From: a virus
Taxonomy: Duplodnaviria > Caudoviricetes
DNA length: 64,000 nt
IMG/VR virus record: IMGVR_UViG_3300013936_000023
Span: 1 to 64,000 of that record
Direction: 5' to 3' (one strand)
Below are positions 275 to 54,628 of this stretch, one piece after another. The notes under the pieces are model-generated. The model did no database searches. It saw only the letters and a list, made by a program, of their open reading frames with translations, and was not told the origin of the DNA. Position 1 is the first letter of the stretch; each line of letters begins with the position of its first letter. Made by a program: the position numbers and the translations under genes.

Positions 275-1365
275 CAGGCGCTCACCCCCAAATTCTCCAT
301 GATGATATCGTAAAGGTCTCCATCCTGTCTCAGCCAAGCAAATACTTGGTCGTCATCGTCAGGCTTGGTAATTGTTGTAGATTTGATGACATATGCCCAC
401 GCAAAGTCAAGATTCTTGACCCGCAGCTCCCACCATGCCTTTGTTGCATCCTCGCGGTAGACAAGGCTTACGGTGTCGCCAGTCGTGTTGCTGAAGCGCA
501 GTACCTCGCCATCGGGAGTAAATGCTCGACCCCAAATGCGCGTGGTATAGCCATTTGTAATCTCATAGCCGTCATCCCACGTCACGCCATGCTCACGAGC
601 ATCAAGCGCTGTGTTATCATCGGTGTACACAGGCTCACCACCGCCATCAATCTTGCCAATGATTGCCACGACATTGCAATCAATCGTGATATACCCCTCT
701 TGACATTGGTTCGTCAAATAGATATAACTATACAAAGACGGCTGAGTATAAGTAGTCGTAAATCCAACCTTGCCAGTGGTAATCTGACGGCCACCAGTGG
801 TCACGCCAACAACCTCGACCATATACGCCGTCTTATCAACCAAGCCGCTGAACAAATAGCTCAGGTCAAGCGGCAAGGTCTTGCTTGAATTGTATTGAGC
901 GCCAGAGGTCGACAGCAATGTACCAGCCGCGTTATACAGGTTGAACACGAACTCGTTCAAATATTCATTGGCATTTGGCGTTACATTGTTGTATCGGACA
1001 GCAAAGGCATAGCTACTGTTGCCAACCTCGCCCTCATCAGCAATATTGGTAAAGGCAAAGCTGGGCTGAGCATAGCAATAGAACTGGACAGCATTGGACT
1101 CAGCCGATGTTTCACCAGCCGCGTTCTTGGTCTGGATGGTCGCCTGATAGTATGTGCCATTGGTCAGCGTACCAGCAGGGACAATATGCTCTAGCTTAAA
1201 CGTCGTGATGCTTGCTGTGTATACAACCTCAAGCGTCGCGTTGTTTTTAATGGTGATGGTGTTGCCCGTTACTTGGTCGCCACCACGAACCGCGAAGGTA
1301 AATGTTTGCGCATTGCTCGCATCAAAATATGGAACAGGAGCAAGCACAGGAGTTGTCAGAGCCAT
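274..1365 (-). CDS. Tail/baseplate-associated protein (beta-rich, FN3/Ig-like N-terminus)
   Basis: 363 aa, Thr/Asn-rich, with an FN3-like segment (GTLTNGTYYQATIQTKNAAGETSAESNAV). Position downstream of the tail fibre. Confidence 0.6.
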   Translation of the reverse strand: MALTTPVLAPVPYFDASNAQTFTFAVRGGDQVTGNTITIKNNATLEVVYTASITTFKLEHIVPAGTLTNGTYYQATIQTKNAAGETSAESNAVQFYCYAQPSFAFTNIADEGEVGNSSYAFAVRYNNVTPNANEYLNEFVFNLYNAAGTLLSTSGAQYNSSKTLPLDLSYLFSGLVDKTAYMVEVVGVTTGGRQITTGKVGFTTTYTQPSLYSYIYLTNQCQEGYITIDCNVVAIIGKIDGGGEPVYTDDNTALDAREHGVTWDDGYEITNGYTTRIWGRAFTPDGEVLRFSNTTGDTVSLVYREDATKAWWELRVKNLDFAWAYVIKSTTITKPDDDDQVFAWLRQDGDLYDIIMENLGVSA

Positions 1366-1381
1366 ATATTGATTGCTCCTT

Positions 1382-3361
1382 TCATGTTATGATTTGATAC
1401 CAGTAGTCACCAGCTTTGAGACCTGATGGCTGCGTGGGCGATAGGATTATTTGGACGCCGCCACCGCCAACATCAATCTCAACCGCGCCGGTCTGCCCAT
1501 TTACAGACGTAACAGGGTATGGAGGCGGATTGCTGGCAGAATATTGTTTTACATTGTCAACGTTACCAAGTCCTACATCGCCTTTAGCAAGCTCCACATC
1601 TCCGGTCTTGCCAGCCACACTTGTCACTGGATAAGGCGGTGGATTGCTCGCGCTATACTGCTTAACGTTGTCAACATTCGATAAACCAACGTCTCCCTTA
1701 GCCATCGTAATATTGATGGCTTTGTTGGCAGATGCATTTGCCGTGAATGTGCCCACAGCTGTGCCGTTCTTCTGGATGGTCAGCGTGGCATCATTGACCG
1801 TTGGCAACTGGCCAGCAACATAATCGGGAATTCCGCCAGCATCCTCAACAGCACCAGTCGGGTCATATGTCGCCTTGAGCATGTCGCCCGCGCCAGCGCC
1901 AGACAAGGCATCAGCCACAGCTTTCTCACTCGGCACCTTGGTCGTGCTTGTGCCAAGGGTTTGTGTCACGTCGCTGGTAGCCACAGCCCCAACATCAGAT
2001 GCACCAAGCACCACTGTTCCTGTCTTGCTGTTCACGCTAGTAACAGGTGCGCTCTCCAGCTTCTTATTAAGTTGCGTCTGGACATTGCTTGTCACGCCAT
2101 CCAGATAGCCAAGCTCTGTACTGGTTACATTGCTCACGGCTACCTTGCCATTACCATCAGATACAAGCGCACGATTTGCCGTGAGATTGTCATCGGTGAT
2201 AGTACTCGCGCCGCCAGTAATTGTATCCTGTTTAGATTGTAGCGCATTGGTCAACGTGGTCACATTGCCCTTGAGCGTCGTAATATCGCCTTGAGCTGCC
2301 TCCATATCAGAATCCAGCATAGCGATGTTGTCCTCGTTGGTATTGATTTGTTGCTTAGCCGCATCTGTGAAATCGTTGTGAGTGCGCACATAGGTCGTGC
2401 CATCTCCAACATCATCTTGCGTAAGTACAACTGCGCCAGTTTTGGTGTTGACAGATTGAACAGGGGCGACCGCAGATGCTCCAGCGGCATCAACAAATCC
2501 AGAATCGTTGTTAAGCTGGCTCGTCTTTGTTGGAACATCAGCCGTCTTAGCATACGGCTCAAGCGCGGCATCCGTAATAAAGCCCTCGTCATTATCAAGT
2601 TCACTGGTCTTAGAGGGGATGGTCGGCTTACCAGTCAAGTCATCATATGCGCCGCTGAACGAGCTTGTACCAGCCCCGATATTCGTGCGGGCTTGAGCTT
2701 TCTGCGCATCGGTTAAGCTCTGAGCCGTAGTCTTGACGGCATTGGTTGTCACAGCGCCAGTTTGACCATCCACGCTTTGAACAGGTGCGCCATCCGCCGT
2801 GATATAACCACTATCGTTAGTCAAGTCGCTGGTCGCCGTTGGAATCTTAGTCGTGCTCGGCAATGCCCCAACGTCCGATGCCGTAAGCGTGACATCTCCG
2901 GTCTTGCCATTGACACTGGTAACATCTCCTCCAACATCAATCGTCACATCGCCAGTTTGGCCATTGACGCTTGTGACAGGATATGGCGGCTCATTGCCTG
3001 TGCCATATACGCCAAGGTCAGAACTGGTTCTGTTGCCCGTCAGCGTTACATTATTGATGCTGGGCTTATTGGTCGGGTTGTTATAGTCAGCAGTTGTTGG
3101 CTTAGAGCCGCCAGAACCGCCACCAGTAATCATGAAGGCGTTCGACATATTGCCTTCAGGTACAAACACACGATATTGTTTGTTGGCCGTAGGTGCATCG
3201 CCATAGAATACAACCTTGGCCTCAACGCCATTCACAACCATCAGGGCGACATTGCTCGCAACTACACCTTTGCACGTGCTGTTGTAAATTTTCGTTGTAC
3301 TCTCTAACGCTCGGCCAATCAAAATTTGAATCGCGTCAAGAATTTCATTCCTTGCGTCCAC
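1382..3361 (-). CDS. Tail fibre-like protein with internal repeats
   Basis: 659 aa with repeated V(T/Q)SVNG(K/Q)TG(D/A)V and KTS(D/E/Q)LxNDSGF/Y motifs, a coiled coil and a duplicated 34-aa C-terminal module. Directly downstream of the tape measure gene. Confidence 0.7.
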   Translation of the reverse strand: MDARNEILDAIQILIGRALESTTKIYNSTCKGVVASNVALMVVNGVEAKVVFYGDAPTANKQYRVFVPEGNMSNAFMITGGGSGGSKPTTADYNNPTNKPSINNVTLTGNRTSSDLGVYGTGNEPPYPVTSVNGQTGDVTIDVGGDVTSVNGKTGDVTLTASDVGALPSTTKIPTATSDLTNDSGYITADGAPVQSVDGQTGAVTTNAVKTTAQSLTDAQKAQARTNIGAGTSSFSGAYDDLTGKPTIPSKTSELDNDEGFITDAALEPYAKTADVPTKTSQLNNDSGFVDAAGASAVAPVQSVNTKTGAVVLTQDDVGDGTTYVRTHNDFTDAAKQQINTNEDNIAMLDSDMEAAQGDITTLKGNVTTLTNALQSKQDTITGGASTITDDNLTANRALVSDGNGKVAVSNVTSTELGYLDGVTSNVQTQLNKKLESAPVTSVNSKTGTVVLGASDVGAVATSDVTQTLGTSTTKVPSEKAVADALSGAGAGDMLKATYDPTGAVEDAGGIPDYVAGQLPTVNDATLTIQKNGTAVGTFTANASANKAINITMAKGDVGLSNVDNVKQYSASNPPPYPVTSVAGKTGDVELAKGDVGLGNVDNVKQYSASNPPPYPVTSVNGQTGAVEIDVGGGGVQIILSPTQPSGLKAGDYWYQIIT

Positions 3362-29427: not shown

Positions 29428-29471
29428 TAGATATATTAGAAATTATCATAAAATATTTTATCAAGTTATAC

Positions 29472-29625: not shown

Positions 29626-29733
29626 CGCAAGCGAGGTAAACGAAAATGTTGCAAATGCAACAATGTAAATGTTAATAGTTTATTTACAGAATATTCATGA
29701 TGCTGTCATAGAATCTTGATATAATTACCATAA

Positions 29734-29810
29734 TGGCAGGACAGGGAGTCATGACCTTGTTGATACCCTCAATATCAACTAACTGCCAAAATTTTTAATA
29801 CTTGAGGGGT
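29734..29810 (+). promoter_or_regulatory. Three-way-junction/anti-SD leader of GIY-YIG gene
   Basis: P1 TGGCAG/CTGCCA, P2 ACAGGG/CCTTGT, P3 TGATA/TATCA. Loop CCCTCAA is complementary to TTGAGGG (29802-29808, SD). Confidence 0.6.
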
Positions 29811-29817
29811 ATGCAAA

Positions 29818-30588
29818 ATGAATGAAAATGAACGCATTTGGAAACTGTATCGGTACACATGCAAGCATAATGGCCTTATCTATATCGGCATAACCAGCAA
29901 AACACTTGATGAGCGCTGGATGAATGGACATGGATATAAGAGCAATCCGAGGCTTAACAATGCTATTCAGAAATATGGAGTAGATGGATTTATTCGGGAG
30001 ATATTACTTGACAACTTGACTCAGCAAGAAGCGTTCGAAAAAGAAATTGAATATATTGCAGAATTTAATGCCACAGACAAAAATGTGGGATACAACATAT
30101 CGATGGGCGGAACAGCGCCAATGGCAGGGAGACATCATTCAGAAGAAACCAAAAGGATGTTCTCTCAAACAAGACTTGGAGAAAACAATAGTTTTTTCGG
30201 AAAACATCATTCCGACAGAACCAAAGAAATTTTAAGCGAAGCCAACAAAGGCAAGAAGCATACGGAGGAATGGAAGAAAGAGCAATCTAAGCATTCTAAA
30301 ATTTGGCACCAGACACATGACAACCCAATGCTTGGAAACCATAGATTTGCCGGTGAGAACAATCCTATGTATGGCAAGCGTGGCGGGGATTCTCCTTTTG
30401 CCGTTAAAGTTGCAAAGTTCTCTCTGGACGGTAAGTTGCTTGAAGTGTTTAATTCGACAACAGAGGCGGCGCAGTCTATTGGAGTTTACAATGGAGCTCA
30501 TATTACAGAGTGCTGTAAGGGAAGACGTAAAAAGTGTGGTGGTTATATATGGAGATATTTTGTGAACGAACAGGAGGAAGAAGAATGA
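29818..30588 (+). CDS. GIY-YIG homing endonuclease with NUMOD3/NUMOD1 domains
   Basis: KLYRYT...IYIGIT...ERW; GRHHSEETK and GKHHSDRTK repeats; FNSTTEAA. Confidence 0.85.
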   Translation: MNENERIWKLYRYTCKHNGLIYIGITSKTLDERWMNGHGYKSNPRLNNAIQKYGVDGFIREILLDNLTQQEAFEKEIEYIAEFNATDKNVGYNISMGGTAPMAGRHHSEETKRMFSQTRLGENNSFFGKHHSDRTKEILSEANKGKKHTEEWKKEQSKHSKIWHQTHDNPMLGNHRFAGENNPMYGKRGGDSPFAVKVAKFSLDGKLLEVFNSTTEAAQSIGVYNGAHITECCKGRRKKCGGYIWRYFVNEQEEEE

Positions 30589-33956: not shown

Positions 33957-34211
33957 ATGAAAATCTATTCTGAAAAGTCTCTGAACGATCTTGAGTTTTG
34001 GAACGGTGCGCGTGATACTGTCAAGTATCTGACTTCTGACGAAATTAACCAGATCGAACAGAATCTTGAAGATCTTTATCCGGACGGCATGGACGAAACG
34101 GAAGTTAATGATTTCTTTTGGTTTGAAAACAATACTATCGCGGAATGGCTCGGCTATAATTCTTTTGAAGACATTATGAACCGCGAAGAGGCCGAAAATA
34201 ACGAAGAGTAA
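33957..34211 (+). CDS. Small acidic early protein
   Basis: 84 aa with RBS AAGGAG. Confidence 0.75.
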   Translation: MKIYSEKSLNDLEFWNGARDTVKYLTSDEINQIEQNLEDLYPDGMDETEVNDFFWFENNTIAEWLGYNSFEDIMNREEAENNEE

Positions 34212-34292
34212 ACCGCGCGGGCTCTCTAAGCCGTTCGAGCCTTTAATCGAGCGGCATTCCATTCAAAATTTTTAATAAAGGAGATTAAAAGT

Positions 34293-34481
34293 ATGAAAAT
34301 AGATAAAAAAAATATGTATGTTGCATATCCGACATTTTGCAAAAATCCGCGCGAAACATTGATTATTTTTGCTGATGATTGTTGCGAAGCGCGCATAAAA
34401 GCAAATAAATTTTACGGCCATAGCTTTGTAAATGTCAGACCGCTTGAGAAAACAAAAGACAAGTATGTTTATAAATTTTAA
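34293..34481 (+). CDS. Small early protein
   Basis: 62 aa with RBS AAGGAG. Confidence 0.65.
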   Translation: MKIDKKNMYVAYPTFCKNPRETLIIFADDCCEARIKANKFYGHSFVNVRPLEKTKDKYVYKF

Positions 34482-38249: not shown

Positions 38250-38274
38250 CAAGCGCGATGGTGTGTGTTATATT
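38246..38274 (+). promoter_or_regulatory. SigmaA promoter
   Basis: TTGACA-17-TATATT. Confidence 0.65.
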
Positions 38275-38306
38275 TTAATCATCAACTAAAGCAAAGGAGA
38301 TTTAAG

Positions 38307-39209
38307 ATGGACATTAAGGAAATTCTTAAAAAGCATAAGATGTGGCTTAACAACGAGATTGGTGGAAAGCGAGCAAACCTGCGTGATGCAGACCTGTGGG
38401 GTGCAGACTTGTGTGGCGTAAACCTGCGTGATGCAGACCTGCGTGGTGCAAACCTGCGTGGTGCAGACCTGAGTGGTGCAAACCTGTGGGATGCAGACCT
38501 GAGTGGTGCAGACCTGTGTTGTGCAGACCTGCGTGGTGCAAACCTGCGTGGTGCAAACCTGCGTGGTGCAAACCTGTGGGATGCAAGCCTGCGTGATGCA
38601 GACCTGCGTGGTGCAAGCCTGCGTGATGCAGACCTGCGTGGTGCAAGCCTGCGTGATGCAGACCTGTGTGGTGCAGACCTGCGTGGCGTAAACCTGCGTG
38701 ATGCAGACCTGTGGGGTGCAGACTTGTGTTGTGCAGACCTGTGGGGTGCAGACCTGTGTTGTGCAGACCTGCGTGGTGCAGACCTGCGTGATGCAGACCT
38801 GCGTGGTGCAAGCCTGCGTGGTGCAAACCTGCGTGGTGCAAAAAACCTCGATAACGTTACATGGTCGATTTATACGGCATTTTATCCGCTTCAGTGTCCA
38901 GAAGAAGGAGAGTATATCGCATGGAAAAAGGCTCATGGCAAGATTGTCAAACTTAAAATTACGGAATCAGCAAAGCGTTCTTCTGCAGTATCTCGAAAAT
39001 GTAGGGCAAGCGAAGCATTGGTTCTTGACATCCAATCTATTGACGGAATGGAACATCTTGAATCGGTTGCAAGTGATAGAGATTCTAATTTCATCTATCG
39101 TGTTGGCGAAATTGTTCGAGTAAATGATTTCGACGAAGATAGATGGAATGAGTGCTCGACTGGAATTCATCATTTTATCACTCGTGAAGAAGCTGTGAAA
39201 TACAACTAA
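38307..39209 (+). CDS. Pentapeptide-repeat protein with conserved C-terminal domain (DUF5758-like)
   Basis: 31 A(D/N/S)L(R/W/C/S)(G/D/C) units; C-terminus CPEEG...KCRASEA...ECSTGIHHF. Confidence 0.85.
   Translation: MDIKEILKKHKMWLNNEIGGKRANLRDADLWGADLCGVNLRDADLRGANLRGADLSGANLWDADLSGADLCCADLRGANLRGANLRGANLWDASLRDADLRGASLRDADLRGASLRDADLCGADLRGVNLRDADLWGADLCCADLWGADLCCADLRGADLRDADLRGASLRGANLRGAKNLDNVTWSIYTAFYPLQCPEEGEYIAWKKAHGKIVKLKITESAKRSSAVSRKCRASEALVLDIQSIDGMEHLESVASDRDSNFIYRVGEIVRVNDFDEDRWNECSTGIHHFITREEAVKYN
38373..38837 (+). repeat. 15-bp tandem coding repeat x31
   Basis: Consensus GCA-RAC-CTG-YGT-GRT. Confidence 0.9.
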
Positions 39210-40558: not shown

Positions 40559-40633
40559 CGGGGAGTAAGCCAATGATAGACGGCAGCATTTGGGATGCTG
40601 AGGTTGCAGGTTTGAGTCCTGCCTCTCCGACCA
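40559..40633 (+). tRNA. tRNA-Pro(TGG)
   Basis: Acceptor CGGGGAG/CTCTCCG, anticodon stem CAGCA/TGCTG with loop TTTGGGA, T-arm GCAGG-TTTGAGT-CCTGC, encoded CCA. D-arm is weak. Confidence 0.8.
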
Positions 40634-40935: not shown

Positions 40936-41009
40936 AGCCGATTAGGATAAAAGAAGTCCGGATGGCTTTGAACCATTAAGAGGCGGGGCGGTACCGTCAT
41001 CGGCCGCCA
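40936..41009 (+). tRNA. tRNA-Gln(TTG) with atypical T-loop
   Basis: A1/C72 mismatch plus 6-bp acceptor, D-stem GGAT/GTCC, anticodon loop CTTTGAA, T-stem GGCGG/CCGTC with loop GGCGGTA, CCA end. Confidence 0.7.
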
Positions 41010-41010
41010 G

Positions 41011-41100
41011 ATAAACATAGGGAACAATCAAGTCGCTCTTGGTTGAGATAACAGCGCTCCTTCGTTGGGCTATGTTTATAAAATAAATATATCTAAGGAG
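41011..41100 (+). promoter_or_regulatory. Three-way-junction/anti-SD leader of endonuclease gene
   Basis: P1 ATAAACATAG/CTATGTTTAT, P2 CAATCAAG/CTTGGTTG, P3 CAGCG/CGTTG. Loop CTCCTT is complementary to AAGGAG (41095-41100). Confidence 0.6.
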
Positions 41101-41110
41101 AGGTATTATA

Positions 41111-41791
41111 ATGAGTAAGCGTTGTGATAATGCTATCGGTAAAAGGGTTGGCATATATGATGTTTTATATAAATGCGACCATAGGGACAAAGACGGTCAT
41201 GAGTTATGTCATGTAAAATGCTCTGTGTGCGGGTGGGAGTCTAATATGAGGCTTTCTCAAATATCGAAAGCTAAGACTTGTACACACATATGTCTTGGAG
41301 GTAAGTTTGTACCAAAGTATTCTTGGAAGTCTCAAAGGCTTAGAAGAATATTTTCTAACATTAAAAGTAGATGCTATGACCCAAGCAACAAATCTTACCG
41401 TTGGTATGGCGGCAAAGGAATTGTCGTATGTGATGAATGGCTGTCAAATCCAGCTTCGTTTGAGGACTGGGCGTTACAAAATGGATATAGTGATGATTTA
41501 ACAATAGACAGGATTGATGAATCTCTTGGCTATTGTCCAGATAATTGTAGATGGATAACAGTCAAAGCTAATTCCAAATATAAATCTACGACAAGAGTTA
41601 TCTACGTAAACGGCGTTGGTCATACGGGAAGAGATTGGGCAAAGATTTTATGTCTTGGCACAAACGTCATCAACAAAATGATGAGAGAATACGACGAGGA
41701 TATTGTCGCAAGATTTATAAGAGCGAGAATGTACAATCCATCCTTAAAAACAAGAAATAAATCTTGGTTAAAGGTTTATGGTTTAATCTAA
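41111..41791 (+). CDS. HNH-type homing endonuclease
   Basis: IKSRCY...YGGKGIVVCDEW...LTIDRID...YCPDNCRW. Confidence 0.8.
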   Translation: MSKRCDNAIGKRVGIYDVLYKCDHRDKDGHELCHVKCSVCGWESNMRLSQISKAKTCTHICLGGKFVPKYSWKSQRLRRIFSNIKSRCYDPSNKSYRWYGGKGIVVCDEWLSNPASFEDWALQNGYSDDLTIDRIDESLGYCPDNCRWITVKANSKYKSTTRVIYVNGVGHTGRDWAKILCLGTNVINKMMREYDEDIVARFIRARMYNPSLKTRNKSWLKVYGLI

Positions 41792-41968: not shown

Positions 41969-42045
41969 GCTATCATAGCTCAACTGGATAGAGCAGCGTT
42001 CTTATAAAGCGCAGGCCGGTTGTTCGAGTCAACCTGATAGCACCA
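41969..42045 (+). tRNA. tRNA with anticodon TAT (Ile-UAU) on an Arg-like body
   Basis: Full cloverleaf: GCTATCA/TGATAGC, GCTC-AACTGGATA-GAGC, GCGTT-CTTATAA-AGCGC, GGTTG-TTCGAGT-CAACC, ACCA. Confidence 0.85.
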
Positions 42046-47168: not shown

Positions 47169-47197
47169 TTGACAAATCTCCTCTTGTGTGGTATCAT
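47169..47197 (+). promoter_or_regulatory. SigmaA promoter with anti-SD spacer
   Basis: TTGACA-17-TATCAT; spacer CTCCTCTT is complementary to AAGAGGAG. Confidence 0.7.
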
Positions 47198-47230: not shown

Positions 47231-47887
47231 ATGGAAGAAATTTGGAAAGATGTAATCGGGTATGAAGGTTTGTATGAAGTTAGCAATTTCGGATTGGTGC
47301 GCAGCGTTGATAGAGTTGTAACAAGGAAAACTGATGGTGCTTTATGTTATCTAAGGGGTAAAAAGTTGACTCAGCAAATTGATTCCAGTGGTAGATATTG
47401 GATGGTTGCTTTAAGTAAAAATGGTATTGAGAAAAGCTATAAAGTTCATTCATTGGTCGCAAAAGCATTCTTACCAAATGACGGCTCCTCCTTGGTTGTT
47501 GTGCACAAGGATGAAAAGAATCTGAAATATGATGGCGTATGCAACAACAGAGTTGACAATCTTGAATGGGGAACGCTGGCAGAGAATAGTTCCAGTCCTG
47601 TTGCGAGAGAGCGCAATGCGGCATCTAAGAATATGGTTGGCGAAAACAATCCAATGTACGGTAAAACTCAATCTGAAGAGACGAGAAGGAAAATTTCTAT
47701 TAAACTCAAAGGTAAGGGTGGGAGAATATCTCGTTCAAAGAAGGTCATGTGTGACGGAGTTTTATATGACTGTGTAACGGACTGTGCGGCAGCGTATAAC
47801 GTAAAGGCTTGTACTATGATGTCTTGGTTGCGCGGTGATAGACCCATGAGAAAAGATTTTAGAGAGAGAGGGCTTACCTATGTCTAA
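47231..47887 (+). CDS. NUMOD4-HNH homing endonuclease
   Basis: EEIWKDVIGYEGLYEVSNFG; VHSLVA...VVHKD...NNRVDNLEW; NUMOD3-like GKTQSEETR. Confidence 0.85.
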   Translation: MEEIWKDVIGYEGLYEVSNFGLVRSVDRVVTRKTDGALCYLRGKKLTQQIDSSGRYWMVALSKNGIEKSYKVHSLVAKAFLPNDGSSLVVVHKDEKNLKYDGVCNNRVDNLEWGTLAENSSSPVARERNAASKNMVGENNPMYGKTQSEETRRKISIKLKGKGGRISRSKKVMCDGVLYDCVTDCAAAYNVKACTMMSWLRGDRPMRKDFRERGLTYV

Positions 47888-50800
47888 TTATACCATTTTA
47901 CATTGTCACACCATGTTATCAAACGCCGTGACTAACATCGACTCTGTAACGACATATCAGCAATATGTTGACAGGGCTAAAGAGTTGGGCATGACAGCTA
48001 TGGCGATATCCGAGCATGGCTCAGTTATGGGCTGGGTCAAAAAGAAATTGGCAATGGAAGCCGCTGGTATAAGGTTCATTGCAGCCGAAGAATTTTACTT
48101 GACCAACACGCTCGACGAAAAGATTCGAGACAACTACCATTGCTTGCTCATCGCCAAGAATTATGACGGCGTACTTGAGCTGAACAAGTTGTCGAGCAAA
48201 TCTTTCAATCGAGACGACAATTCGTTCTACTATGTGCCGCGCATCACTATTGAGGATGTCAAGAACACCAGTGACAACATCATCGTATCAACGGCGTGTT
48301 TGGGCGGCGTGCTTAACAAAGCACCTGAGCCTATTCGCCAAGATTTTTTTGATTGGCTATGCCAGCATCCCGACCGTTGCTTTCTTGAAGTTCAGCCGCA
48401 TATCAGCGCAGAGCAGAAACGATATAATCAAGCGCTTTGGGCGTTGAGCAAACGTAGTGGATTGCGGCTGCTGATGTGTACAGATACCCATGCGCTCAAC
48501 GCCGAGCATGTGGAAGGTCGCAAGATTTTACAAAAGGCCAAGAGCATCCACTTTGACGGCGAGGATGAATTTCATCTTGAGATGTTGAGCTATGATGAGC
48601 TTGTACGGCTATGTCAGCTCCAGAACGCCTTGCCCATGCAAGTTTATCTCGACGCCATTGAGATGACGAATACGGTGGCGGATATGGTTGAGCCGTTTGA
48701 GCTGGACTATTCCTACAAGTACCCGCACCTTTGGGGTGATGATAGCGAACAGGTGCTTAGAGCCAAGATTGCAGATGGCATTAAATGGCGCGGCGTTGAT
48801 AAGCTGCCCAACTACCAGCAGTATCTTGACCGCATTGAGTATGAAATGAAGGCATATATCCATAATGGCGCTATTGATTTCATGTTGTTGATGGAGGATA
48901 TTGTGGCATGGTGTCGCACACAGGATATTCTAATCGGTTATGGGCGAGGGTCGTGCACGGGCAGTCTGATTGCCTATCTGCTCGGCATCACAGAGATGGA
49001 CAGCATCAAGCACGGCCTTAATTTCGACCGCTTCATGAATGTGGAGCGTGTGTCACTGAGCGACATTGATAGCGACATCGCTCCAAACAGAATTGACGAG
49101 GTTAAGGATTATGTGTTCAATAAGCACGGTCTGTACTGCGCCGATATTGTCACATTTAACACCATTGCCCTGAAGGGTGCCGTGCGAGATGTTGGCCGTG
49201 CATTAGGTATGTCGCTTGATGAAGTCGGCGCAATATGCAACGTGGTCGAACAGGATGAGGCTGGATGCCGCGCTAAATATCCGGAGTTGTTCGAATATGT
49301 CGATATAGTAAACGGCTGCGTGGTGTCTGTGGGCAACCATCCTTCGGGCATGATAGTAGCACCGCACAGCATTGATGACCGCATGGGGCTATTCACCACA
49401 TCTACGGATACGGTGCCTATTAGCCAAATCAATATGAAAGAGGTTGACCTTCAGAACTACGTTAAGCTCGATTTGCTGAAATTGATAACCATACAGATTA
49501 TCAATGAGACTTGCAAAATGATTGGCATAGACAGATTGACGCCGGATAATATAGACGTAAATGATGTGGCTGTGTGGCAGTCTATTAGAGATGATACAAC
49601 GGCCATATTCCAGTGGGAGTCGAGTTCGGCACAGCGGTATATCAAGCAGCTGCTGTCAGATAATACTATTGCCAAGTTGCGCAAGGTGCAGCCCGATATT
49701 GACTATATCACATTGCTGTCTATGGGTAATGGTGCCATTCGCCCCGCTGGCGCATCATATCGTGATGAATTGGCAAACGGCGATATTAGAACCTATGACA
49801 ATGAAGCAATCAACAATTTCATGTCTGATACATTCGGCTTCTTGATTTTCCAGTGTCAGATTATCGGCTTTTTGCACCAATACTGTGGCTATACTATGGG
49901 CGAGGCCGATGTTGTGCGTCGTCATTTTGCCAAAAAAACAGGCACAGATAAGGATATCCCGCAAATCAAGGCTGGCTTTGCCAAGACTATGAGGGAACAG
50001 TATGGAATGAGCCAAGAGGAGTCCGACAAGACCATTGCCGATTTTATCCAGGTCATTGAAGATGCCAGCAACTATCTATTCAGCCTAAATCATAGTCAGC
50101 CGTATAGCTATGAGGGATATGCCGAAGGATGGCTTAGATATTATTATCCGGTACAATTCCTGACCGTATGCCTCAACGTTGAACAGGGCGATGACGGCAA
50201 GACGGCGGCATTGACAGCATACGCCCATAAGCTGGGCATCAAAATTAAATCGCCGCAGTTCCGTCATTCCAAGTCTGATTATTTCTGCGACGTTGACACC
50301 AAGTCCATATACAAAGGTCTTGGCTCAATCAAGTATATGAGCGCCGCAGTAGCCGAAGAATTGTACACCATGCGCGACCAGCAATTTGGCAATTTTATTG
50401 ATTTTCTGTTCGCCATGCAGTCTATGACCAATAAGCCTGATAGCCGCCAGCTTGACATCCTTATCAAGATTGGGTACTTTGAGGAATTTGGCCCAGCCAA
50501 GGCGCTGTTGCTTGGCGTAGAGATTTTTAATAAATTTTTCAAGTGCAAGAATTTAAGGCTTGACAAATGGGCTGAGATGGGTTATGATATAGCCGTCCTA
50601 AAGGCCAACGCTGCCAAGCTCACAGATAAGACGGCGAGCGGCATTGACAATCATGGGCTTATCTTGGGTATTCTGCGGTCGTTGAAAATGCCGCGCACGA
50701 CCATTGTTGACAAGCTCAGATGGCAATTCGAGATGCTTGGATATGTTGATGGTTCTGACTCACGCCGAGACGTCAATGAATATCTCGTGCTTGCCATCGA

Positions 50801-51032
50801 GACAACAAGTTATGGTGCGATATGGCTTAGGCTATATAACCTTGCCTACGGTGCTGAACGACGTTACAAGGTTGACAAGCGATGGGCAGCAAGCCATAGC
50901 TGCAAGACTGGCGATGTGCTCAAGGTTGTGCTGGATGAGAAGCCAAAATTCAAGAAACTTGATGATGGCAAATTCGTCAAGACTGGCGAGGTCGAGACGG
51001 TTGTGAAAATGTTTAAGGTTTTGGAGGTTTGA
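47880..51032 (+). CDS. dnaE: DNA polymerase III alpha subunit (PHP plus polymerase)
   Basis: LHCHT PHP domain; GRGSCTGS, SDIDSD, HPSG, KLDLL and FSLNHS motifs. Confidence 0.92.
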   Translation: MSNYTILHCHTMLSNAVTNIDSVTTYQQYVDRAKELGMTAMAISEHGSVMGWVKKKLAMEAAGIRFIAAEEFYLTNTLDEKIRDNYHCLLIAKNYDGVLELNKLSSKSFNRDDNSFYYVPRITIEDVKNTSDNIIVSTACLGGVLNKAPEPIRQDFFDWLCQHPDRCFLEVQPHISAEQKRYNQALWALSKRSGLRLLMCTDTHALNAEHVEGRKILQKAKSIHFDGEDEFHLEMLSYDELVRLCQLQNALPMQVYLDAIEMTNTVADMVEPFELDYSYKYPHLWGDDSEQVLRAKIADGIKWRGVDKLPNYQQYLDRIEYEMKAYIHNGAIDFMLLMEDIVAWCRTQDILIGYGRGSCTGSLIAYLLGITEMDSIKHGLNFDRFMNVERVSLSDIDSDIAPNRIDEVKDYVFNKHGLYCADIVTFNTIALKGAVRDVGRALGMSLDEVGAICNVVEQDEAGCRAKYPELFEYVDIVNGCVVSVGNHPSGMIVAPHSIDDRMGLFTTSTDTVPISQINMKEVDLQNYVKLDLLKLITIQIINETCKMIGIDRLTPDNIDVNDVAVWQSIRDDTTAIFQWESSSAQRYIKQLLSDNTIAKLRKVQPDIDYITLLSMGNGAIRPAGASYRDELANGDIRTYDNEAINNFMSDTFGFLIFQCQIIGFLHQYCGYTMGEADVVRRHFAKKTGTDKDIPQIKAGFAKTMREQYGMSQEESDKTIADFIQVIEDASNYLFSLNHSQPYSYEGYAEGWLRYYYPVQFLTVCLNVEQGDDGKTAALTAYAHKLGIKIKSPQFRHSKSDYFCDVDTKSIYKGLGSIKYMSAAVAEELYTMRDQQFGNFIDFLFAMQSMTNKPDSRQLDILIKIGYFEEFGPAKALLLGVEIFNKFFKCKNLRLDKWAEMGYDIAVLKANAAKLTDKTASGIDNHGLILGILRSLKMPRTTIVDKLRWQFEMLGYVDGSDSRRDVNEYLVLAIETTSYGAIWLRLYNLAYGAERRYKVDKRWAASHSCKTGDVLKVVLDEKPKFKKLDDGKFVKTGEVETVVKMFKVLEV

Positions 51033-51451: not shown

Positions 51452-51701
51452 AGCGTGCGGCGAATGGTTCGCCAAATCCAGAGATGACATGGTGCTTTGC
51501 AGCAAGTGTGAAATGGCATTAGGACGATTGGCTGGTTACGCCGTGGTCGTGACGCGGTGCAAAGACTGTCGAGGCTCTCGCAAGCTGAACCGAAACGACA
51601 GGCTGGAAGATGTCTATACAGAAGGGGTTTTGTGGTGCATGAATCAGTCTAATGGCGTATGGCCGGATGATTTTTGCAGCTATGGCGAGCCGAAGTTTTG
51701 A
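51438..51701 (+). CDS. Cys-rich hypothetical protein
   Basis: MPACKACG...RCKDC...DDFCSYGE; RBS GGAGGTG. Confidence 0.65.
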   Translation: MPACKACGEWFAKSRDDMVLCSKCEMALGRLAGYAVVVTRCKDCRGSRKLNRNDRLEDVYTEGVLWCMNQSNGVWPDDFCSYGEPKF

Positions 51702-51726
51702 CAAATGCAAAATTCTATGATATAAT
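51698..51726 (+). promoter_or_regulatory. SigmaA promoter (probable original ATPase promoter)
   Basis: TTGACA-17-TATAAT. Confidence 0.7.
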
Positions 51727-51767
51727 ATCAAATGCTGAATAAAGGCAGAAAGTGAGGATATAAGAAT

Positions 51768-51839
51768 ATGGGGATTGCAGTCAAGAATTTTCAAAAAAAA
51801 GTTCTTGACAACGGCATCTGGATGCGATATAATCTATAA
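51768..51839 (+). pseudogene. Vestigial 5' stub of the AAA ATPase gene (MGIAV...)
   Basis: ATG GGG ATT GCA GTC with RBS GAGGA mirrors the ATPase start ATT GGG GTA GCT GTT at 52503. Confidence 0.6.
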
Positions 51840-51930
51840 TAGAGGTTGAGATAAGGTTGCAAACTTTCTCATTTAGGACAACGTGCTTACTCCGCGTTGT
51901 CCACTCTAATAAAAATTTCTTGAGTAAGGA
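51805..51930 (+). promoter_or_regulatory. Promoter plus three-way-junction/anti-SD leader (copy A)
   Basis: TTGACA-17-TATAAT; P3 GGACAACG/CGTTGTCC; loop CTTACTC pairs with GAGTAAG (51922-51928). Confidence 0.75.
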
Positions 51931-51939
51931 GAATGTAAG

Positions 51940-52503
51940 ATGGAAGAAATCTGGAAAGATGTTGTTGGATATGAGGGTTTATACGAGGTAAGTAATCTTG
52001 GTAATGTGCGTAGCTTGTTTCGGTACAAGAAACAACTCAAGTGGAACGTCTTGAGTTCTGGCTATGCGACTGTTCAACTTTTCAAAGAAAAAGTTGGTAC
52101 AAGATTGCTTGTACATCGACTTGTCGCCAAGGCATTCTTACCCGATCCAGATGGATTACCGGTCGTCAACCACAAAGACGAAAACAAATTAAATAATAGC
52201 GCGGACAATCTTGAGTGGTGTACTCAACAGTATAACTTAGCTTATAACGACGGGCATAGAAAAAGAGCCGACAACACGCGCTGGTTCTATGATGAAATGC
52301 GTGTAAGGTTCAAAGAAAATAATCCCGCTATAAAATTGCCAGTCGTTCAGATGAGTTTGTCTGGCGAATTTATAAAAGAATGGCCAAGCGCCAAAGATGC
52401 AGTTGTTGCGCTTGGCTATAAATCAGACCATATCTGTGAATGTTGCAAAGGGAAACGAGAGACATCTAATGGATTTAGATGGAAATATAGGGAGGTAATT
52501 TAA
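51940..52503 (+). CDS. NUMOD4-HNH-NUMOD1 homing endonuclease
   Basis: EEIWKDVVGYEGLYEVSN; VHRLVA; VNHKDENKLNN..DNLEW; EWPSAKDA. Confidence 0.85.
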   Translation: MEEIWKDVVGYEGLYEVSNLGNVRSLFRYKKQLKWNVLSSGYATVQLFKEKVGTRLLVHRLVAKAFLPDPDGLPVVNHKDENKLNNSADNLEWCTQQYNLAYNDGHRKRADNTRWFYDEMRVRFKENNPAIKLPVVQMSLSGEFIKEWPSAKDAVVALGYKSDHICECCKGKRETSNGFRWKYREVI

Positions 52504-53150
52504 TTGGGGTAGCTGTTTTGATTCTTGGTGAATCCGGCTCTGGTAAGTCGGCGTCCATGCGAAACTTTGCGGAGAATGATGTTCGCATTCTGAATGTGGC
52601 ATCTAAGCCGCTGCCGTTCAGAAATGTTAACAAGCTCAAGAAGGCCGATAAGGCAACCTATGGCATGATTCGTGGCGCTGTTACGAGTGGCCAGACGTTG
52701 AGCTATGTAGTGGATGACGCGCAGTATCTCATGGCGTTCGAGAGCTTTGACAAGGTGAACGAGACAGGATATGGCAAGTTTACCACCATGGCTAAGAACT
52801 ATGAAGAAATGCTGAGATGCATTCAGGAGGACACGTCGCCCGACACCATCGTCTATGTTATGCAGCACGTTGACGTCGATGAAAATGGCAAGGTAAAGGC
52901 AAAGACGCTCGGCAAGATGCTTGACCAGCAGCTCACGGTTGAGGGGTTATTCACGATTGTTCTGCTTGCCAAGGCAGATGAACGCCGCCATTATTTTATC
53001 ACCCAGTCTGATGGCATGAATCCGTGTAAGTCGCCGATGGGGATGTTCGACGAAGTTGAGATTGACAACGACCTCAAGATGGTCGATGACACCATCAGAG
53101 AATATTATGGACTGAAGAAGAATACTGCGCCGAGTAAAAAAAGTCCTTGA
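52503..53150 (+). CDS. Sak4-like/AAA_24 ATPase, probable ATT start
   Basis: ILGESGSGKS, VVDD and KSPMGMF motifs; SD GGAGGT 6 nt before ATT; paired with SSB gene. Confidence 0.8.
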   Translation: MGVAVLILGESGSGKSASMRNFAENDVRILNVASKPLPFRNVNKLKKADKATYGMIRGAVTSGQTLSYVVDDAQYLMAFESFDKVNETGYGKFTTMAKNYEEMLRCIQEDTSPDTIVYVMQHVDVDENGKVKAKTLGKMLDQQLTVEGLFTIVLLAKADERRHYFITQSDGMNPCKSPMGMFDEVEIDNDLKMVDDTIREYYGLKKNTAPSKKSP

Positions 53151-53272
53151 CAAAAGCATCCGGATGTGATATAATCCATAATAGAGGTTGAGATAAGGTT
53201 GCAAACTTTCTCATTTAGGGCAACGTGCTTACTCCGCGTTGCCCACTCTAATAAAATTTCTTGAGTAGGGAG
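53147..53272 (+). promoter_or_regulatory. Promoter plus three-way-junction/anti-SD leader (copy B)
   Basis: Near-identical to copy A, with a compensatory A-T to G-C change in P3 (GGGCAACG/CGTTGCCC) and GAGTAGG target. Confidence 0.75.
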
Positions 53273-53280
53273 AATGTAAA

Positions 53281-53937
53281 ATGAGTGCTCTGAAAGATTT
53301 AACTGAGAAACGCTTTGGAAAGTTGATCGTATTACGTAGGAGTGGCAATGATAAACATAAGAATGCGACGTGGTTGTGTCAGTGCGATTGTGGAAACAGA
53401 TGTAATGTCGTAGGTGCAAATCTTTGGCGAGGCGATACAAAGTCTTGCGGATGTTATAAGAAAACCAATAAATACGAAGAAGATGGGGCCGTAACAAGAA
53501 TCCATCTCACGAATGGCTCTGTTGTGTTAGTTGACACCGAAGATGTTCCTAAGATATCAATGTACCAATGGAGTATCGCACGTGGATATGCCGTAGCAAC
53601 GATTAACAATAAAACAACATCTATGCATCGACCAATAATGGACGCCAAAGACGGATTTGTTGTTGACCATATCAATCATAACGAGCTTGATAACAGGAAG
53701 AGTAACTTGCGCGTGTGCACTCAAAGCAATAACGCCATGAATCGTAAAAAGGCAAGCAATAACACGTCTGGATATATAGGTGTCGTGTTTAAGAAAGATT
53801 GTGGTAAATGGGAGGCATTTATTCGAGTTGACAAGAAGCGAAAATATTTAGGGTTATTTGAAACGCCAGAGCTTGCTCACGAAGCTCGCAAAGAAGCCGA
53901 AGAAAAATATTTTGGTGAGTTCGCCTATCAAGGCTAA
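53281..53937 (+). CDS. HNH-AP2 homing endonuclease
   Basis: DLTEKRFGKL...WLCQCDCG; VDHINHNELDNRKSNLR; NNTSGYIGV; YLGLF. Confidence 0.85.
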   Translation: MSALKDLTEKRFGKLIVLRRSGNDKHKNATWLCQCDCGNRCNVVGANLWRGDTKSCGCYKKTNKYEEDGAVTRIHLTNGSVVLVDTEDVPKISMYQWSIARGYAVATINNKTTSMHRPIMDAKDGFVVDHINHNELDNRKSNLRVCTQSNNAMNRKKASNNTSGYIGVVFKKDCGKWEAFIRVDKKRKYLGLFETPELAHEARKEAEEKYFGEFAYQG

Positions 53938-53977: not shown

Positions 53978-54628
53978 ATGAGAAAGGTAGATTTAAGCAA
54001 GGTTCAGGAAGCTGGTAGCGGTAACTACAAGAAGTTGCCCGTAGGAGGTTATGTTATCCGCATCTTAAAGTGCGAAGACGTTCCCGACAAAAATCGTCTC
54101 GATTTTTACTTTGACATTGACGAAGGCGAGTACAAAGGATTCTATGGCGAGAAGTACAAGAACGATACTCGCGAGACGAAGAAGTGGGGTGGCCGTTTCT
54201 CTAAGTCTTACGACTCAAGTAACGAAAAGGCGCTGCCGTTCTTCAAGCAGTTTGTAACGGCTGTTCAGAACAGCAATAAGGGCTTTGTGTGGGATGAAGA
54301 GCACGAGCAGCAGTTTGTTAAGAAGGTTGTTGGAGCGACCTTTAGGGAGGAAGAGTATCAAGGCAATAACGGAAAGATTCAGACGAGTTGCAAGCCTGAT
54401 ATGTTCCATAGCGCCGATAAGATTCGCAAGGGAGATTTTGAGGTTAGAGAGCTGAAGAAGCTCGACGCAACCAAGGTATCCAGTCAGACTAAGCAGGATG
54501 ATTTTACTGACCCGTTTGCAAATCAGGACAACACGAAGGCCGCAAGTGACCCGTTTGCCAGTGCGCCCGCTAATGATGCCCTTGGTGATGCTACCGCACC
54601 TTGGGATACGGAGAACCCTTTCGCCTGA
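53978..54628 (+). CDS. Phage ssDNA-binding protein (DUF669-like)
   Basis: KLPVGGYVIRI...REEEY; acidic tail ending ENPFA; follows the Sak4-like ATPase. Confidence 0.65.
   Translation: MRKVDLSKVQEAGSGNYKKLPVGGYVIRILKCEDVPDKNRLDFYFDIDEGEYKGFYGEKYKNDTRETKKWGGRFSKSYDSSNEKALPFFKQFVTAVQNSNKGFVWDEEHEQQFVKKVVGATFREEEYQGNNGKIQTSCKPDMFHSADKIRKGDFEVRELKKLDATKVSSQTKQDDFTDPFANQDNTKAASDPFASAPANDALGDATAPWDTENPFA

Follow-up and report, generated by a model that had tools for sequence, protein, structure and literature searches.

A conserved structured mRNA leader that moves with free-standing homing endonuclease genes in Bacillota-type phages

The viral DNA analysed here, referred to throughout as the window, is a stretch of 64,000 nucleotides (positions 1 to 64,000 of the 74.8-kb IMG/VR virus record IMGVR_UViG_3300013936_000023, assigned to the Caudoviricetes) whose DnaE is best matched by the DnaE of Clostridioides and Bacillus phages, at 42-49% identity. 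One unit is present in it twice, at 51794-51942 and 53136-53283, each time as a promoter and a leader of roughly 100 nt in front of a homing endonuclease gene (HEG). The leader belongs to a real and well-supported family of cis-regulatory RNAs that is apparently undescribed, and the promoter, leader and nuclease gene together form one mobile cassette. The features of the two copies, A and B, are given below, where P1 to P4 denote helices, L3 and L4 the loops that pair with each other, SD the Shine-Dalgarno sequence, MFE the minimum free energy and CM a covariance model.

51805-51833, plus strand: promoter of copy A, TTGACA-17-TATAAT, matching the consensus at 12 of 12 positions; 7 nt separate the end of the -10 from P1
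51841-51939, plus strand: leader of copy A up to the start codon, about 100 nt
51841-51907, plus strand: three-way junction of copy A (MFE fold; CM match of 99.4 bits; covariation in P1, P2 and P3)
51841-51844 with 51904-51907, plus strand: P1 of copy A (MFE fold, CM, covariation)
51848-51855 with 51864-51870, plus strand: P2 of copy A, its loop at 51856-51863 reading G-UUGCAA-A (MFE fold, CM, covariation)
51876-51883 with 51895-51902, plus strand: P3 of copy A, with loop L3 at 51884-51894 (MFE fold, CM, covariation)
51917-51933, plus strand: 3' hairpin P4 of copy A, UUCU at 51917-51920 with AGAA at 51930-51933 (P4 covaries across the family)
51922-51928 with 51886-51892, plus strand: L3-L4 pairing of copy A, GAGUAAG in L4 with CUUACUC in L3 (covariation)
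51926-51931, plus strand: SD of copy A, AAGGAG, with the AUG at 51940
51940-52503, plus strand: NUMOD4 + HNH_3 homing endonuclease gene of cassette A (Pfam)
52518-53150: Sak4-like ATPase gene (PHROG 2872)
53147-53175, plus strand: promoter of copy B, TTGACA-17-TATAAT with TG upstream of the -10, matching the consensus at 12 of 12 positions
53183-53280, plus strand: leader of copy B up to the start codon, about 100 nt
53183-53274, plus strand: leader fold of copy B (MFE fold; CM match of 104.4 bits)
53183-53186 with 53246-53249, plus strand: P1 of copy B
53190-53197 with 53206-53212, plus strand: P2 of copy B, with its loop at 53198-53205
53218-53225 with 53237-53244, plus strand: P3 of copy B, with the L3 strand CUUACUC at 53228-53234
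53258-53261 with 53271-53274, plus strand: P4 of copy B, with the L4 strand GAGUAGG at 53263-53269
53267-53272, plus strand: SD of copy B, AGGGAG
53281-53937, plus strand: HNH_3 + AP2 homing endonuclease gene of cassette B (Pfam, PHROGs)

A reading of the locus made beforehand from the sequence alone (the sequence-only reading) had noted that two near-identical leaders precede different HNH architectures and that the few differences between them preserve structure, and both observations hold. The 103-nt leaders are 96% identical and the 124-nt repeat family D3 (51794-51917 against 53136-53259) is 93% identical, while the architectures are NUMOD4-HNH_3 and HNH_3-AP2 and the two products show no N-terminal similarity. 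Within P3, A51878 becomes G and its partner U51900 becomes C, an A-U to G-C exchange, and in the pairing of the loop with the SD region GAGUAAG becomes GAGUAGG opposite CUUACUC, an A-U to G-U change. The remaining leader differences comprise a linker shorter by one A, a substitution next to the AUG and another right after the -10. The three-way junction is the MFE fold in both copies (z = -2.6 and -2.5). Taken by themselves the two copies are weak evidence, and the decisive support comes from homologues elsewhere and their covariation.

An exact-word scan returned only a near-identical fragment, whereas looser patterns returned divergent copies, 16 of which were used to build a first covariance model (R1). 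R1 recovered 25 copies, spread over 14 phage records that range from 17 to 98 kb, each genome holding between one and three; other viral contigs and metagenome contigs added more, and a second model (R2) gave members in other relatives. At least 20 phage records and about 12 metagenome contigs now contribute to the family, which comprises about 40 distinct sequences. When the leader was compared by BLASTN with 50,697 records of isolated phages, no match was obtained. A loose-pattern scan of bacterial and archaeal genomes hit at least 80 loci and none of the matches listed fitted the covariance model, a result that covers those listed matches only and so says little about prophages. With Rfam 15, the whole window yielded only tRNAs at gathering thresholds, 51650-53350 gave nothing relevant at E <= 10, and five diverse members gave nothing on the motif at E <= 1. 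No description of the family was found in the published literature, the unnamed candidates of one comparative-genomics catalogue of more than 10,000 candidate phage RNAs (PMC10690425) not having been compared. The suggestion that this might be an undescribed class of RNA is thus supported as far as the Rfam check and the literature reach.

Five helices were counted on 36 distinct sequences (alignment A4), namely P1 (4 bp), P2 (8 bp), P3 (8 bp), the L3-L4 pairing (7 bp) and P4. In this alignment 93.9% of cells pair and 27 of the 32 pairs have changed on both sides; the covariation score is 0.615, compared with 0.226 after shuffling (0 of 500 shuffles reach the observed value) and 0.08-0.16 when the pairing partners are slid, and an earlier count on 24 sequences gave the same picture. 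The conserved three-way junction with covariation that had been proposed from the two copies is therefore well founded. It consists of P1, P2 and P3, with P1 starting at the predicted 5' end and appearing in the covarying versions AGAG/CUCU, GAGG/CCUC, AUAG/CUAU, AAGG/CCUU and AAAG/CUUU. The L3-L4 pairing is 6-8 nt long and occurs in at least ten sequence versions, among them CUUACUC/GAGUAAG, CUUAUCU/AGAUAAG, CCUAUAU/AUAUAGG, CUUACAU/AUGUAAG, CUCGUCU/AGACGAG, CUUGUCU/AGACAAG, CUUGCAU/AUGCAAG and CCUCCA/UGGAGG, in the last of which L3 is a plain anti-SD. P4, which the sequence-only reading had not recognised, has the form 5'-AWUCU / AGAWU-3' (AUUCU/AGAAU, AAUCU/AGAUU, UUUCU/AGAAA) and encloses the partner strand of L3 together with the first G residues of the SD. 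It had been supposed that a pseudoknot sequesters the SD. Covariation does support pairing between the P3 loop and the SD region, but since P4 encloses the partner strand the interaction is more aptly called a kiss of two hairpin loops, L3 and L4, with the P4 stem holding part of the SD. The SD itself (AAGGAG or AGGGAG) is divided between the L3-L4 helix and the P4 stem, both of which have covariation support. A few unpaired nucleotides are invariant, these being GG-U after P1, UU in J2/3, A in J3/1 and the GC that opens L3. G-U pairs are frequent in P2 and P3, which indicates that it is the sense-strand RNA, and not duplex DNA, that is under constraint.

A further feature that had escaped the sequence-only reading is that the hexaloop of P2 is always palindromic. 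It reads U, a 4-nt palindrome and A in every member of the family, and falls into six classes: UUGCAA, which most members have, UAGCUA, UGUACA, UGCGCA, UCAUGA and UGGCCA, the last of which was recovered with a pattern that left P2 unconstrained. A G and an A flank the hexamer in most classes, within a closing G-C or A-U pair. As in a retroviral dimer initiation site (DIS), therefore, an apical hexamer is self-complementary and its self-complementarity is kept through sequence change. A tRNA anticodon loop was considered as the partner of the P2 loop and dropped, UUGCAA alone being suited to such a loop.

It is very improbable that the palindrome acts in DNA, as an operator, a cruciform or a recombination site to which the RNA fold is incidental. 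P2 with its loop is a nearly perfect DNA palindrome lying at about +8 to +30 of a strong promoter, but an operator or cruciform is argued against by the stem sequences, which vary freely with pairing kept, and by the many G-U pairs, which would be A-C on the other strand. Moreover, the other four helices, including the long-range loop-loop pairing with the SD, covary likewise, and a single genome may hold several palindrome classes.

The simplest reading of the palindromes is pairing between two RNA molecules, either as a kiss or as an extended duplex. There were five independent departures from the commonest class and the likelihood that all would be palindromic by chance is approximately (1/16)^5; the two central bases of the hexaloop are unable to pair within a single hairpin; and the coexistence of several loop classes in single genomes means that no single sequence-specific protein explains them. 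The computed energy for a cofold of two P2 hairpins is -17.5 kcal/mol, compared with -8.0 for two monomers, and there is a precedent in the palindromic-loop dimer initiation of retroviruses (PMC4588261; reviewed in PMC7357161). Thus a homodimer formed through the P2 hexaloops might be a regulatory input, acting either by a concentration-dependent locking of the repressed fold or by way of a quasi-continuous helix of about 22 bp that would be cut by RNase III. This is compatible with repression of translation by the leader, and its probability may be put at a little below an even chance. The computed loop-loop energies are weak overall (-4.5 to -8.3 kcal/mol), most loops having only two G-C pairs and falling at -4.5 to -5.1 kcal/mol compared with -7.9 to -10.9 for loops of the HIV type; dimerisation of a nuclease mRNA would serve no known function, and the P2 loop of one candidate relative in the window, at 41012, is not palindromic. 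The fuller proposal, that the leader is a naturally dimerising mRNA element with six interchangeable "codes", a phage counterpart of the retroviral dimer initiation site that controls translation or RNase III processing of homing endonuclease mRNAs, can be advanced only tentatively. Were it true, the leader would be a mobile expression module that senses RNA concentration.

In 35 of the 36 distinct members P1 is preceded, at a distance of 5-7 nt, by the end of a TTGACA-17-TATAAT promoter, which often has an extended -10 TG, and this spacing would place the start of transcription at P1 or a few nucleotides from it. It is also the only consensus promoter in those members, and between P1 and the SD there is no promoter-like site. 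The 36th member (L118) and a diverged variant outside those 36 (L415) have no promoter, and their leaders begin 0-5 nt past the 3' end of a tRNA-Ile(UAU) gene. The two are quite different leader and HNH cassettes in different phages (L118 1501-1698, L415 1501-1695, minus strand), and their common position directly 3' of tRNA-Ile(UAU) suggests a second homing site at which 5' ends would come from tRNA processing. Since either a promoter or a tRNA end adjoins P1, a defined 5' end seems to be part of the design. A second promoter-region family (repeat family D5) was observed at 29461, 42150, 47158 and 50549 of the window, sharing CTTGACAAAT and an extended -10; together with the many perfect sigma-A-type promoters on the plus strand it points to an early or replication module driven by the host RNA polymerase. 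The window shows no significant enrichment of the 8-mer GTTGCAAA (9 found, 4.5 expected).

The association of leader and nuclease had been described as one with free-standing nuclease mRNAs, and the element is indeed specific to free-standing nuclease genes. All of the open reading frames (ORFs) examined behind the motif are HEG-like, whether NUMOD4-HNH, HNH_3 with or without AP2, or "HNH endonuclease" of PHROG 3377/374, and different nuclease families stand behind near-identical leaders. Conversely, the motif is absent at 80 loci of NUMOD4-HNH relatives in other phages (about 40% identity), the close relatives L005 and L006 excepted, and at 46 loci of distant GIY-YIG relatives, so that it is not general to these nuclease families.

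Comparison of homologous sites shows what it is that moves. Cassette B lies between the Sak4-like ATPase gene, whose stop codon falls within the -35 of copy B, and a gene at 53978-54628 (gene B). The same site holds promoter, leader and nuclease in nine genomes (G000, G001, G002, G004, G005, G007, G009, G010 and G012, the last with two tandem cassettes), with at least three nuclease types among the occupied sites, and it is empty in G003, G008, G011 and G013, where a gap of 75-107 nt contains no motif. When the occupied site of G004 is set against the empty sites of G011 and G003, the junctions fall immediately upstream of the -35 region on the left and immediately past the nuclease stop on the right. 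No copy was found in six of ten further relatives, two of those six being complete genomes. Presence or absence at homologous sites is thus combined with an ORF of a HEG family, as is characteristic of a free-standing HEG cassette, and the cassette includes the promoter and leader, which the sequence-only reading had not noticed.

Cassette A (approximately 51784-52503) has inserted after codon 5 of the ATPase gene and has brought with it a substitute for the N-terminus that it displaced. In G004 the empty allele is MGVAVLILGESG, while the window has MGIAV, then cassette A, then IGVAVLILGESG. Several details of this site were observed alongside. The original ATPase start, MGIAV (51769-51783), has an SD of its own and another perfect promoter, at 51698-51726, and the stub reads on into cassette A as a 23-codon ORF ending at 51840. 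The 3' end of the cassette (52504-52518) supplies IGVAV behind a GGGAGG SD, with an apparent start at ATT or a downstream TTG.

Another explanation is that the leader mainly benefits the phage. In such a case it would be a 5' stabiliser or insulator, in which a paired 5' end resists 5'-dependent decay and the promoter restores expression of the interrupted downstream genes, burial of the SD being secondary. The predicted 5' end is where P1 stands in 35 of 36 members; otherwise P1 directly follows a tRNA 3' end. The nuclease genes are followed by no terminator and the next phage gene begins within 15-40 nt. In addition, two nuclease ORFs with an in-frame stop (L110 ~1604-2275, L111 ~925-1503, minus strand) are preceded by an intact promoter and leader; each has a single stop, at codon 6 and codon 49 respectively, and otherwise the alignment with intact relatives keeps the reading frame. 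Bacillus is known to have 5' stabilisers of such a type. One hairpin at the 5' end would suffice for this role, however, and the role explains neither the palindromic P2 loop nor a covarying L3-L4 pairing that has the SD at its centre, whilst two decayed ORFs are too few to show co-option. On balance this explanation is rather unlikely.

Two other nuclease genes of the window, at 29818 and 41111, had been said to carry leaders of the same topology. These candidates are as follows.

about 41008-41110, plus strand: candidate diverged leader before the HNH-family gene 41111-41791 (three-way junction in the MFE fold; P4 identified by hand)
29734-29817, plus strand: candidate diverged leader before the GIY-YIG gene 29818-30588 (MFE fold, with a z of only -0.7)

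The architecture and the nuclease-family products agree with the claim, but the match to the family does not go much further: 41012-41110 is a marginal R2 match (E 0.12), R2 misses 29722-29823, and a search of 13 related genomes gave no homologue of either leader. The 41111 candidate has a 10-bp P1 and an 8-bp P2 with a non-palindromic loop; its P3 loop, CUCCUU, is the complement of the SD AAGGAG, itself held in the loop of a P4 (AUAUCU/AGGUAU). The PHROGs to which the gene product is assigned are those of the other nucleases. The gene itself was observed to lie between two tRNA genes, at 40559-40630 and 41969-42042. In the 29818 candidate P1 is GGCAG/CUGCC and the P3 loop CCCUCAA is complementary to UUGAGGG, a 7-bp L3-L4 match enclosed by P4 (AUAC/GUAU). 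Its P2 loop, AGUCAUGA, contains the palindrome UCAUGA and recurs unchanged in the diverged family member L415. It is plausible that both are diverged relatives. A separate case is 34197-34293, which precedes a small ORF starting at 34294 and matches R2 at E 0.002 with a 5' part different from that of the family; a hairpin loop, CCUUUA, is complementary to an SD, UAAAGG, in the loop of a 7-bp hairpin, and an 8-nt palindrome, CCGCGCGG, lies upstream. The principle of a kiss with the SD may therefore serve outside nuclease genes. Elsewhere in the window, at least 26 copies of a 15-nt tandem repeat (64-85% identical to the reference copy) at 38313-38915 lie inside an ORF at 38265-39209, implying a protein with a 5-residue repeat.

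Taken together, the sequence comparisons suggest that the element is probably a conserved cis-acting structured mRNA leader that represses translation and is joined in one mobile unit to a strong sigma-A promoter and a free-standing HEG, in Bacillota-type phages of 48-98 kb. Transcription from the strong host-type promoter would begin at or near P1, whereas in two members the leader follows a tRNA 3' end. The RNA folds into the P1-P2-P3 junction and then P4, the P3 loop pairs with the P4 loop, and the L3-L4 pairing and P4 stem, as their covariation shows, cover the SD. Burial of the SD would presumably block or strongly reduce 30S binding, and an abundant early mRNA would then give very little of a nuclease that may be toxic. 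Read-through to the downstream phage genes, like the paired 5' end, may make the insertion tolerable for the phage, and the self-complementary P2 hexaloop probably pairs two leaders.

A number of considerations weigh against repression in this simple form. The family is drawn from one fairly narrow phage group, so that part of the covariation signal is shared descent, and P4, which is short and covaries at two of five pairs, is the least secure helix. The L3-L4 duplexes are short and A/U-rich, with computed energies of -5.3 to -9.0 kcal/mol, and repression may in consequence be partial. A third HNH gene in the window (47231-47887, NUMOD4/NUMOD3) has a plain leader of about 33 nt without the motif; this gene was seen to have its own promoter at 47169-47197 and to overlap the start of a DnaE-type polymerase gene (47880-51032) by 8 nt. 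Simple sequestration of the SD leaves the conservation of P1, the junction and the P2 loop unexplained. Finally, the nuclease must be made at some stage, which calls for a mechanism that opens the fold.

This last point bears on the possibility that the leader is a riboswitch-like sensor, in which the junction binds a small molecule or a phage or host protein, or responds to temperature, and so toggles the loop-loop pairing to time nuclease synthesis. Some switch is needed to turn synthesis on, the fold has multiple helices with some invariant unpaired nucleotides, and the expression platform sequesters the SD. Nevertheless a sensor is improbable. The Rfam searches described above gave no aptamer match, the conserved unpaired positions are few, and no conserved alternative (anti-sequestor) pairing was found on inspection. 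The linked genes are selfish homing endonucleases only, with no metabolic tie, and as near-identical leaders occur on unrelated nucleases, autoregulation by the nuclease is unlikely.

To our knowledge, how carrier phages are protected from free-standing homing endonucleases is understood only in a few T-even genes, where the hairpins are ad hoc. The leader represents a reusable conserved RNA module that is common to different nuclease families and moves with them, and it offers a defined, well-supported fold for probing, reporter assays and structure determination. If its palindromic loop is self-pairing, it would count among the rare natural mRNA elements of bacteria or phages that pair with themselves, functional RNA oligomers being seldom seen in nature (PMC7357161). 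With its strong promoter and a tight translational brake about 100 nt long, the module could also be a genetic part for Bacillota.

Several known systems share some of these properties. SAM-II and preQ1-II/III are SD-sequestering pseudoknot riboswitches, and in these and similar RNAs a loop likewise pairs with the SD region on a compact 5'-leader scaffold, whereas the leader has no Rfam match and non-metabolic genes and its pairing is a loop-loop kiss of two hairpins. The HEARO or omega RNA of IsrB-IscB is also a structured RNA directly 5' of an HNH-domain nuclease gene on a mobile element; the leader differs in having no Rfam match, in its size of about 100 nt and overlap with the SD, and in that the proteins are small classical homing endonucleases with NUMOD or AP2 DNA-binding modules and are not RNA-guided. 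With the DIS or kissing-loop dimers of HIV-1 (PMC4588261; PMC7357161) it shares a 6-nt self-complementary loop, mostly purine-flanked, that is kept through sequence change, but its loops are A/U-rich, it is the mRNA leader of a bacterial virus and not a packaged genome, and the dimer is only predicted. The closest parallel in kind is with the T-even phages, where RNA structures that sequester the ribosome binding site limit translation of I-TevI, I-TevII, I-TevIII, segB and mobE of Aeh1 (PMC2988022). There too an RNA structure covers the SD of a phage HEG mRNA, with the same presumed purpose of limiting nuclease translation, and the leader family is in kind a variant of this known strategy of hiding the ribosome binding site. 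Those structures, however, are single local hairpins with no common fold and are bypassed by a late promoter inside the hairpin, whereas the leader is one five-helix fold across several nuclease families and has no such internal promoter; with its promoter upstream of the whole structure every transcript contains that structure, and, unlike the T-even hairpins, it moves with its gene and has a palindromic loop.

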